Source of the DNA: an uncultured Acidobacteriota bacterium
GTDB lineage: Bacteria > Acidobacteriota > UBA6911
Assembly: GCA_964651155.1 (NCBI GenBank)
Contig: CAZYXB010000004.1
Span: 46,386 to 110,385 of the forward strand
Reading direction: 5' to 3'
Length of the DNA stretch: 64,000 bases
In this document: positions 16,776-18,866 of the stretch, piece after piece
How the letters are laid out: every line of letters starts with the position of its first letter
Numbering within the stretch: position 1 is the stretch's first letter
Position numbers and translations under genes: made by a program
Notes under the pieces: generated by a model
Databases searched by the model: none
The model's input: the letters and a program-made list of their open reading frames with translations, nothing else
Told to the model about the DNA's origin: nothing

Positions 16776-18866
16776 ATGGCACGCTATATAGTCTCGATCA
16801 TGTTAGCCCTGTCTATAGCGAATGTGCACGCCTGGGCCGATTCTGCAGACGATGACTACAACCGCCTCGCGCGCGTCGCCTACATGGAGGGTCCCGTGAG
16901 CTTCCAGGGCGCCGGCGACGTCGACTGGAGCGCAGCGGCGGTCAATTTCCCGTTGCAGCCGGGAGACAGGCTGTATACGGGGCTCAAGGGGCGGGCCGAG
17001 ATTGAATTCGACGACGGCTCCGTGTTGCGCCTGGCCGAGGGTACGGACATCCAGATCCTATCGCTCAGGGAAGACCTCATCCAGATACGCATCCTGACCG
17101 GCCTTTCCTCCCTGATGGTTTCCAGCAACCTTGAATTCGAGGTGGATACCCCTGCGGCGGCCTTCGTCATGCTGCGCGAGGGCTCCTACCGGTTCGAAGC
17201 GGACGACGGAGGCGATACCAGCGCCATTGTGCGCAAGGGGGAAATGGAGGCGATCAGCCACCGTTTTGTCCGCAGGGTCCGTGCGGGCGACCGGATCCTG
17301 GTGACCGCGGATCCGAACAGCACCTACCAGTTTTCCAGTCACTACGGACGGGACGCGTGGGATGAATGGAACGATCGCCGGAACGTCGACAGGATCGTGC
17401 ACGGCAGCCGGCAGTACGTGCCCGACAGCGTCTATGTCGGGGTTTCCGACCTGGATAGGCATGGAAGGTGGGTGACCGTGGAGTCCTACGGGGCTGCGTG
17501 GATTCCATTCTCGGTCGGCGTCTCCTGGTCCCCTTACACGGTCGGCCGATGGTGCTACCGGCCGGTGTGGGGGTGGACCTGGGTTTCCTATGAGTCCTGG
17601 GGCTGGCTCCCGTATCATTACGGCAGATGGTACCGCAGCGCGAACTACGGATGGTGCTGGCTGCCGGGGCCGTCGTTTTCCTTTGATTTCTGGTCCCCCG
17701 GCCTGGTCACCTTCTACCATGGCCCCTCCTGGGTATCCTGGTGCCCTCTGGGCCCGGGCGACTACTACAGCATCAACAATTACTACTACAACGCCAGGGT
17801 GCACCGCCATCGCCTGGGCGATCTGAGGAAACTGCACAGCAGGCCCGCCGGGGATCCTTTCAACCGGCATGTCCGCGACGCGTTCCGGACCGTGCATCTG
17901 GATCACTTCCGGGACGGGCGTTCCCGCGCTGTTGCGACCGACCAAGGGTATGCGAGGATAGAGAAACCCTGGGAACGGGGAACCCTGGTTCGGGAGCGGC
18001 TTGCCGTCGAGCCGACTAAGATGAGCTTCAACCCCGATCCCGGCCGTCAGGTGGTGCGTTCGAAGGTCGTGAACCCGAAACCCGCAGTGGTCTATTCCAG
18101 CCCGAACACCAGGGTCAACAGAAGCGACGCCTACGTGCGGATTCGCGACAGTGAGATCACCGCGCAGGCGGGGCGCAGTATAGCGCACGCCCGGAGTACG
18201 GCTCCGTCCGCCGGCGGGCGTGCCCCCGGTTCCGCCAGGGCCGGAGTCCGGGAGGATGCCGGACAAACGGTTCGCAGCCCTGTGCAGAAGAACCCGGATG
18301 CCCGGGGCGCCGAAGAGCGGGCAGGGCGGGCGACCGACTCCCCCGACGCCCGGAGCCCCCGAGCGGACATTCGCCGGGAACCCGGGAATCCCGCCGGGAA
18401 TCGCCCCCAATCCCAGCCGGCCTCGGAGATGCCGTCGCGGGATAGCCGGGACCGCGATTCCGCGCGGAGCCGCCCCGAGACCCCCGCCAGGCAGTCTGTC
18501 GAGCGTCCCACGACGCAACGGGCGGTAGACTCACGGGATTCCTCCAACGGCAGTTCCGGGAGCGGCCTCAACCGGCCGGCGATCCCGAGCGGGCGAGACG
18601 CGGGACCCACGCAACGGGAGGGCGTCGGCGGCGTCAGGTCGTATGCGCGACCGGCCGCGCCTTCCTACAGTATCGTCCGCCCGCCGACGGCAAGCAGCCG
18701 ATCGCGTGTCGCAACCCCCCCGGCTTCATCGGGCGGGATCCGCTCTGATCGGTCCCCGGCTTCCGGGCGCGGCTCAAGGAGCGCAGCCCGGCCGTCGGCC
18801 CCCTCGCGGGGCAGCTCCCCAGGGGAACCCGACAGCGCGCGCAAGGCCGTCAAACGCGGCAAATGA
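16776..18866 (+). CDS. Secreted FecR-domain protein with a Trp/Tyr-rich repeat region and a roughly 250-aa Arg/Ser/Pro-rich disordered C-terminal tail
   Basis: Signal peptide [19 protein letters not shown]. FecR-like [35 protein letters not shown]. W-rich block [30 protein letters not shown]. Tail rich in RS/RD/SP dipeptides. Confidence 0.6.
   Translation: [696 protein letters not shown]

Follow-up and report, generated by a model that had tools for sequence, protein, structure and literature searches.

FecR domains are known from FecR/PupR-type anti-sigma regulators and from the secreted lipoproteins LipL45 and Lsa33 of Leptospira. Aromatic beta-hairpin repeats that bind cell-wall ligands are known from choline-binding proteins (CW_binding_1) and from clostridial toxins, and both extracytoplasmic function (ECF) and sigma-54 factors commonly have envelope functions under their control. 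In soil and sediment the Acidobacteriota rank among the most abundant bacteria, and their envelope biology is largely obscure. Here we analyse a gene from an uncultured member of this phylum, located at 16776..18866 on the forward strand of a 64,000-nucleotide stretch of contig CAZYXB010000004.1 (the window), whose product combines a predicted signal peptide, a FecR domain, the Trp-rich domain DUF6600 (PF20245) and a long polycationic tail. Within its family, which is catalogued but uncharacterised, it is an ordinary member. DUF6600 already stands in Pfam and such proteins are named by NCBI; in the literature that we searched, DUF6600 or PF20245 is nowhere mentioned, FecR domain-containing proteins appear only incidentally, and a FecR domain together with LipL45 does not appear. 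The explanation that best covers the results as a whole, with a probability of roughly 0.5, is that the product is an exported FecR-DUF6600 envelope protein, inducible, which acts as a multivalent scaffold or tether in the envelope.

The FecR-DUF6600 protein and its family

The open reading frame (ORF) lies exactly where a previous sequence-only reading had placed it, has an ATG start, encodes 696 amino acids plus stop and is a real coding sequence, tail included. Its parts are the following.

16776..18866, + strand: coding sequence of the FecR + DUF6600 family protein (ORF, Pfam, homolog search)
16776..16838, + strand: predicted Sec-type signal peptide, residues 1-21, cleavage between AWA and D (sole hydrophobic segment; N-termini of homologs)
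16965..17243, + strand: FecR domain, Pfam residues 64-156 (PF04773 match; modelled beta-sandwich at about residues 65-188)
17355..17411, + strand: conserved helical linker, residues 194-212 (AF2 helix at mature residues 173-191; invariant alignment columns)
17445..17759, + strand: DUF6600, residues 224-328 (Pfam, 95.9 bits; hairpins modelled)
17760..18170, + strand: conserved extension, residues 329-465, mixed alpha/beta and basic (net charge +12), without a Pfam model
18171..18863, + strand: polycationic low-complexity tail, residues 466-696, ending in RKAVKRGK (composition, charge, homolog comparison)

A database search returned 2,838 homologs; nearly all of the best 120 are FecR-DUF6600 proteins of 560-810 residues, mostly labelled Acidobacteria, and the homologs listed are 43-94% identical to the window protein. 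DUF6600 alone has 11,909 cluster representatives (50% identity clusters, E <= 0.001), most of which carry the domain at residues 210-250 of proteins of 500-830 residues. Core relatives number at least 592 in a scan of species genomes and at least 592 in a scan of metagenomes, and are found in hundreds of species genomes; the matches listed are almost all from Acidobacteriota, including Terriglobia, Bryobacteraceae and Acidobacteriaceae. Compared with the acidobacterial proteins that NCBI names 'FecR domain-containing' or 'DUF6600 domain-containing protein', the window protein shows no difference in architecture over its whole length, from the signal peptide and FecR domain through the helical linker, DUF6600 and the conserved extension to the cationic low-complexity tail, and is a full member.

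The signal peptide that the sequence-only reading had placed ahead of a FecR-like domain is borne out by hydrophobicity, and the domain by Pfam. The predicted signal peptide has a positive n-region, a hydrophobic core and an A-x-A site, and the equivalent N-termini of homologs end in AWA or AYA. All of the top five 19-residue Kyte-Doolittle windows fall inside it, and by the same measure no transmembrane helix is present in the rest of the protein. Nor is there a lipobox Cys, the first Cys of the 696 residues being residue 260. The product is predicted to be Sec-exported and soluble, neither a lipoprotein nor a membrane protein. PF04773 matches residues 64-156 with 34.3 bits (cutoff 24) and the model has the PupR-like fold, so that the FecR assignment, which had been proposed for checking against this profile, passes the profile test and the fold test. 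The N-terminal domain shares the fold of the periplasmic FecR/PupR domain. Beyond FecR and DUF6600, Pfam finds nothing in the protein at E <= 1.

The Trp-rich block, for which a search for a DUF had also been proposed, is a catalogued Pfam domain; DUF6600 matches residues 224-328 with 95.9 bits (cutoff 27) over profile positions 2-101 of 102. The peptide quoted from this block by the sequence-only reading is present at residues 269-298, and the Trp enrichment it described stands, with a slightly different count: where it gave about 13 Trp per 100 residues, residues 224-330 contain 15 Trp in 107 residues, against a background of 0.48% in 17 neighbouring proteins (binomial P = 9e-18). The domain is modelled as four tandem Trp-rich beta-hairpins (residues 230-244, 258-270, 283-297 and 311-324) of the form (v)GRW-x5-6-(Y)GW-x-W-x-P, and contains three near-invariant Cys. 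The extension that follows is conserved over 120 homologs, with a predicted local distance difference test (pLDDT) score of 60-90 in the AF2 model as far as about residue 426. Indeed, by column conservation the conserved and probably folded part of the protein runs from about residue 22 to about residue 465, far past both Pfam domains.

The low-complexity C-terminal tract had been put at 250 residues; the tract is there, but it measures about 230, the conserved part reaching to about residue 465. Residues 466-696 (231 residues) have a net charge of +21, a pI of 11.8 and 8% hydrophobic residues, and the composition, calculated on residues 451-696, is 16.7% R, 16.3% S, 14.6% A, 11.4% P and 10.2% G. 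Tandem repeats in the underlying DNA amount to two trivial 8-nt arrays. The sequence of the tail is not conserved, whereas its composition, length and positive charge are kept in all homologs examined, which have roughly 280-460 residues beyond DUF6600, rich in R/S/P/G/A(N), and a basic C-terminus. The tail is net positive in all 117 database proteins whose tail reaches at least 100 residues and in 137 of 137 translated loci, comprising 21/21 orthologous loci, 103/103 distant ones (30-42% identity; loci L019-L085 and L101-L167) and 13/13 others. A net-positive disordered tail of about 230-400 residues is, then, a universal trait of the family. The tail had been called highly unusual; within its own family, of thousands of members, it is a defining trait.

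In the closest relative (protein P0001, locus L086), which is near-identical, the tail contains a 126-nt (42-codon) in-frame duplication; the two genes otherwise differ in only 7 codons, too few for counting synonymous and non-synonymous changes. The 42-residue tandem duplication (L086:2379-4556) sits after the residue that matches window residue 576, and, since it keeps the frame, the tail evolves by gain and loss of segments. The Joint Genome Institute gene call for this relative starts 13 residues later than the window ORF.

Putative promoters and gene neighbourhood

The features around the coding sequence are the following.

16692..16728, + strand: conserved bipartite element, read as an ECF-type promoter (position weight matrix (PWM) score 27.5; fixed position in 22/25 orthologs)
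16761..16767, + strand: Shine-Dalgarno sequence GGGAGGG (the sequence itself and ortholog alignment)
16673..16693, + strand: weak terminator-like hairpin and T-run right after the ptsI stop codon (scan match AACGGCCGGTCCGTT followed by CTTTTCT)
18872..18930, + strand: long GC-rich terminator-like hairpin, then TTTCTTTCC (RNA fold and sequence)

The Shine-Dalgarno sequence stands ahead of the ATG at 16776 and also aligns in orthologs. The upstream hairpin, of 5 bp with 3 G-C pairs, is suggestive at most; the downstream one begins 6 nt past the stop codon and was overlooked by a simple terminator scan because of its bulge and long loop. With terminator-like hairpins on both sides the gene looks monocistronic. 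An Rfam search of 16400-19300 found no RNA family.

The element upstream of the gene reads, in the window, -35 TGATAC (16694-16699) followed by TTTT, a 16-nt spacer and -10 CATCTCA (16716-16722), and orthologs share it although the surrounding intergenic DNA cannot be aligned. Their copies pair TGAnAC and a T-tract with C(A/G)TC across a 16-nt spacer, and some orthologs have the variants CGTC or GCGTCAAAA; the form TGAnACTTT-N12-GC(A/G)TCTGA, with 'nAC' in the -35 and mostly CATC in the -10, is conserved in 22 of the 25 orthologs and enriched over shuffled sequences. The regular expression ACYT-N15-17-TCTNA matched 11 of the 25, against 0.30 expected (maximum 3 in 200 shuffles), and the strict form ACTT-N16-TCTGA matched 6, against 0.01 expected; the reverse strand gave no matches and the distant relatives gave 2 in 125. 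By PWM (consensus TtTGAcACTTTG-N12-GCATCTgATa), 22 orthologs score 18-36, compared with a 99th percentile of 8.7 and a maximum of 14.9 in shuffles, and the three low scorers are 1-nt spacing variants. In orthologs, 118-160 nt separate the site from the mature N-terminus downstream. In the 64 kb of the window the copy scoring 27.5 is the only strong match, the next best reaching 10.7.

Published ECF promoters have a -35 of tGAAACnTTTt, a -10 of CGT(A/C) and a spacer of 14-17 nt (PMC5758882), and the E. coli sigma-E promoter reads GGAACTTTT / GGTCAAAA, the core regulon of sigma-E serving lipopolysaccharide (LPS) and outer-membrane protein homeostasis (PMC1312014). In the element at 16692-16728, the T-tract behind the -35, the spacing of 16 nt and a -10 of C(A/G)TC type resemble those of published ECF promoters. 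We infer, with moderate support, that the window gene is expressed from an ECF-type promoter. The sequence-only reading had seen no sigma or anti-sigma partner; indeed no ECF sigma or TonB-dependent receptor is encoded within about 10 kb, but the conserved element upstream suggests that a connection to a sigma factor probably exists at the level of the gene's expression.

The same element might instead be a promoter of the housekeeping sigma factor with an unusual -10, or a transcription-factor site, which we consider doubtful; this alternative competes with the regulatory side of the proposal only. The upstream half does read TTGACA, the sigma-70 -35 consensus, in many orthologs, the canonical ECF 'AAC' is present only as 'nAC', and a cognate ECF sigma was not found in the window or the fetched loci. 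However, 17 nt past TTGACA stands CATCTG, which has 2 of the 6 TATAAT positions, for a TGATAA-like hexamer the spacer would have to be about 20 nt, and a scan for E. coli-type sigma-70 promoters upstream of the gene, which is not calibrated for Acidobacteria, found no site. The T-tract, spacing and -10, moreover, fit the published ECF architecture.

Distant relatives have a different signal. The sigma-54 -24/-12 motif TGGC-N8-TGC was found no more than 150 nt from the start in 40 of 68 distant loci, against 1.2 expected, and, in the enlarged distant set, in 56 of 125 against 3.5 expected, typically 55-85 nt before the start codon. Near-consensus sites, such as TGGCACTCGGCCTGCA, lie 17-111 nt upstream of the start. 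Often the promoter is accompanied, upstream and on the same strand, by genes for a sigma-54 enhancer-binding protein of FHA-GAF-AAA+-HTH type and for a Cache/HAMP histidine kinase; the former was seen at 35 loci, with a median gap of 512 nt, and the latter at 26. The kinase may not be the direct partner of the activator, because the activator has an FHA and not a receiver domain. In the orthologous clade the motif was found in 0 of 14 and then in 1 of 25 loci (0.7 expected), and it is absent from the 600 nt upstream of the window gene. The Terriglobia relatives thus appear, with moderate support, to be expressed from sigma-54 promoters, and the type of promoter would switch between ECF-type and sigma-54 across clades.

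The gene had been said to sit alone. It does look like its own transcription unit, but it is not isolated, being kept between the rpoN/PTS (phosphotransferase system) cluster and msbA in orthologs. Upstream lie, in order, an LptC/LptA-like fusion, LptB, RpoN, HPF, HprK, RapZ, a mannose-type EIIA, HPr and PtsI; downstream follow a GmhA-like SIS protein, a HAD-like protein, an MsbA-like ABC exporter, YicC, Gmk, CoaBC, Era and PriA. Orthologs at 44-70% identity keep the order ptsI, the gene, msbA and yicC-gmk-rpoZ-coaBC-era-udg-priA. Relatives at 30-42% identity lack the PTS and msbA neighbours, save L018, L023, L070 and L077, which are found behind rapZ or PTS genes. In L005, from a biogas fermenter and the one ortholog without the PTS block, that block is replaced and an msbA-like gene is still directly downstream. 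In place of the PTS genes, L005 encodes upstream an ECF sigma, a 207-residue unknown protein and a histidine kinase, together with a sigma-54 response regulator and a multihaem cytochrome fusion. The ECF sigma gene (5597-6313, - strand, 3.7 kb upstream) has no copy of the conserved element in front of it.

Several of the neighbours deserve separate description. The gene at 6793-9303 (+) encodes an 836-residue protein with an LptC domain at residues 19-186, an LptA/LptD_N-like part at residues 720-803 and about 530 residues without an assigned domain between them; it is conserved in orthologs (758-836 residues in L001-L003) and looks like an unusually long LptC-LptA fusion. The region 10065-16672 (+) holds rpoN-hpf and then hprK, rapZ, mannose-type EIIA, HPr and PtsI genes. 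The neighbours identified, over about 6.8-30.3 kb of the window, include no PTS permease gene, and the cluster, conserved across orthologous Acidobacteriota genomes, looks like a PTS-Ntr-like phosphorelay of regulatory type, with HPr kinase as one component. The GmhA-like protein and a 391-residue protein are encoded at 19071-20854 (+), between the FecR-DUF6600 gene and msbA, as an insertion confined to the window lineage and to L086/L087, its closest relative; in other orthologs msbA comes straight after the FecR-DUF6600 gene. The 391-residue protein has only a weak HAD-like match, and about 300 N-terminal residues are without assignment. Three mechanically called ORFs, at 12585-14087 (rapZ), 18870-19670 (gmhA) and 20851-22971 (msbA), all on the + strand, are over-extended at the 5' end by 90-220 R/G/P-rich codons, and long antisense ORFs, for example 17058-18518 (486 residues), are frequent and typical of high-GC shadow ORFs. 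Gene starts in the window need support from homology.

Proposed role and competing explanations

The role that appears most likely, and that anatomy and context weakly suggest, is a stress-induced scaffold which may bind anionic envelope polymers. In the window lineage the gene would form a separate transcription unit driven by the conserved ECF-type promoter, and in Terriglobia it would be driven by a sigma-54 promoter, with an enhancer-binding protein and a histidine kinase adjoining in about half of the loci examined; from these two types of promoter we propose an inducible envelope-response gene. The aromatic hairpins of DUF6600 would bind a glycan or another envelope ligand, anionic polymers, be they LPS, exopolysaccharide or material associated with peptidoglycan, would be bound by the polycationic tail, and contact with a protein partner would come from the FecR sandwich. 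The polysaccharide- or cell-wall-binding role suggested by the sequence-only reading is plausible and agrees with this anatomy. We count in favour of an envelope role the lptC/A-like, lptB and rpoN genes upstream and the gmhA-like, HAD-like and msbA-like genes downstream, as well as the adjacency to msbA, which survives where the PTS genes are absent; the signal peptide, the lack of any further hydrophobic segment and the three near-invariant Cys count for an extracytoplasmic location.

Several points weigh on the other side. There is some circularity in the PWM scores, the sites scored being those that served to refine the matrix, and the regular expression alone is independent. The -35 has TGAnAC where AAC would be canonical, and CATC prevails over CGTC in the -10; an ECF sigma gene bearing the same motif was not found in the window or the fetched loci, and the window and four 22-kb loci held neither further copies of the element nor an ECF sigma gene. 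The lpt/msbA synteny is limited to one clade and so could be inherited order rather than a functional link. The binding role proposed for hairpins and tail is argued by analogy, for the hairpins with aromatic hairpin repeats and for the tail with disordered regions of polycationic character. Comparison of the DUF6600 models with solved structures found no analogue, a result that is provisional because the mean pLDDT is only 66-70, and the family profile, run against the sequences of solved structures, gave only low-complexity matches (ryanodine receptor, TBP) at an insignificant E >= 0.008.

A bolder version of the scaffold proposal, which we put forward tentatively, is that DUF6600 and the extension form a new fold recognising an envelope glycan or lipid, and that the family is a phylum-wide inducible factor of envelope protection or tethering whose control was rewired between a sigma-54 activator/kinase module in Terriglobia and an ECF sigma in the anaerobic lineage of the window. 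If this were true, a FecR fold would act as an effector of an ECF regulon and not as its anti-sigma regulator.

The main competing explanation, in our view an unlikely one, is that the protein is a periplasmic signalling or feedback module, stress-induced and binding the sensory domain of its own control system. In Terriglobia the FecR sandwich would dock onto a Cache histidine kinase and in the window lineage onto an anti-sigma factor, much as CpxP acts back on CpxA and RseB on RseA. About half of the relatives with sigma-54-type promoters, however, have no adjacent kinase or activator, and the orthologous clade has no adjacent sensor at all. A simple inhibitor, moreover, needs neither a universal polycationic tail of 230-400 residues nor a Trp-rich repeat module.

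More improbable still is a matrix or adhesion protein released past the outer membrane, whose cationic tail would bind extracellular DNA, acidic exopolysaccharide or mineral and organic particles of negative charge during the formation of biofilms or aggregates. Such a role would suit the strongly and universally cationic, disordered tail, the very wide occurrence of the family in soil and sediment Acidobacteriota, and a weak similarity of the FecR domain to the Leptospira surface proteins LipL45 and Lsa33. That similarity, however, scores far under the cutoffs for the two families, secretion-system genes, a C-terminal sorting signal and a hydrophobic anchor were not found, and the chromosomal context of the orthologs is one of outer-membrane and LPS biogenesis, not of exopolysaccharide.

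For a canonical FecR-type anti-sigma regulator of cell-surface signalling, only the presence of a FecR domain speaks. The FecR region comes straight after the 21-residue signal peptide, leaving no cytoplasmic anti-sigma domain; there is no transmembrane helix, an STN-like (FecR_C) C-terminal subdomain has no Pfam match, and the helix and DUF6600 sit after the FecR domain instead. No FecI-like ECF sigma or TonB-dependent transducer is among the neighbours within about 10 kb, all of which were identified, in the window or at four orthologous loci (the absence was noted separately at L002-L004), and tblastn of an ECF sigma against the 64-kb window found nothing significant. Domain architecture and gene context thus rule out this explanation, as the sequence-only reading had anticipated in proposing a non-canonical role for the FecR domain.

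Equally untenable is the idea, raised by the sequence-only reading as a possible objection, that the tail is an artefact, that is, a stop-free high-GC stretch, a frameshift or an antisense shadow. Its GC content is 70-76% with little contrast between codon positions, a measure that is uninformative here because all three positions are GC-rich, and the 486-residue antisense ORF shows that long spurious ORFs do occur in this region. However, all homologs have tails of the same length class, composition and charge, and several of them are S/N-rich, including tails from lower-GC genomes, so that the tail is not a mere by-product of high GC. The 42-codon indel between near-identical relatives keeps the frame, the basic C-terminal end is conserved, and a terminator-like hairpin follows the stop codon. 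The antisense ORF and the other overlapping ORFs match no family. Homolog tails, the in-frame duplication and the absence of families for the antisense ORFs together rule out a frameshift or antisense origin.

Comparison with known systems

Beyond what the annotation already gave, the analysis adds the full conserved architecture, the universal cationic tail, the lack of a solved structural analogue and the apparent switch between ECF-type and sigma-54 promoters. It shows an exported polycationic disordered tail as a selected trait. The two regulatory handles, the putative ECF-type promoter on the one hand and the sigma-54 promoter with its adjacent activator on the other, offer a way to search for the conditions that induce the gene and for other members of its regulon.

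Within the family, the window gene is unlike other DUF6600 members in its position between ptsI and gmhA/msbA and in its putative promoter, of ECF and not sigma-54 type, and its tail is Arg/Ala-rich, whereas the tails of other members are Ser/Asn/Gly/His-rich. With stress-induced envelope proteins, such as those of the E. coli sigma-E regulon and the Psp system, it has in common a putative promoter of ECF or sigma-54 type, an extracytoplasmic product and neighbouring genes for the transport and synthesis of LPS; it has no relationship to them in sequence or fold, and the likeness in regulation is drawn from motifs. The likeness to CW_binding_1 and clostridial toxin repeats would be a lead only: both are tandem hairpins of about 20-28 residues with G-W/Y-x-W/Y motifs in extracytoplasmic proteins, but there is no Pfam match at E <= 1 to CW_binding_1 and no structural match, and the DUF6600 motif (GRW...YGWxWxP) with its conserved Cys is distinct from those repeats.

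Like LipL45 and Lsa33, the window protein is exported and carries a FecR domain outside an anti-sigma context. The likeness runs through the FecR domain only: the window protein has no lipobox, and its NCBIfam scores are 15.8 against a cutoff of 350 and 13.5 against a cutoff of 420. LipL45 and Lsa33 are not known to have DUF6600 or a cationic tail. With FecR/PupR-type anti-sigma regulators (6ovm, 4m0h) it shares the periplasmic FecR domain with its PupR-like fold but, in contrast to them, it is predicted to be fully exported rather than membrane-spanning, and the analysis separates it from the FecR anti-sigma factors.

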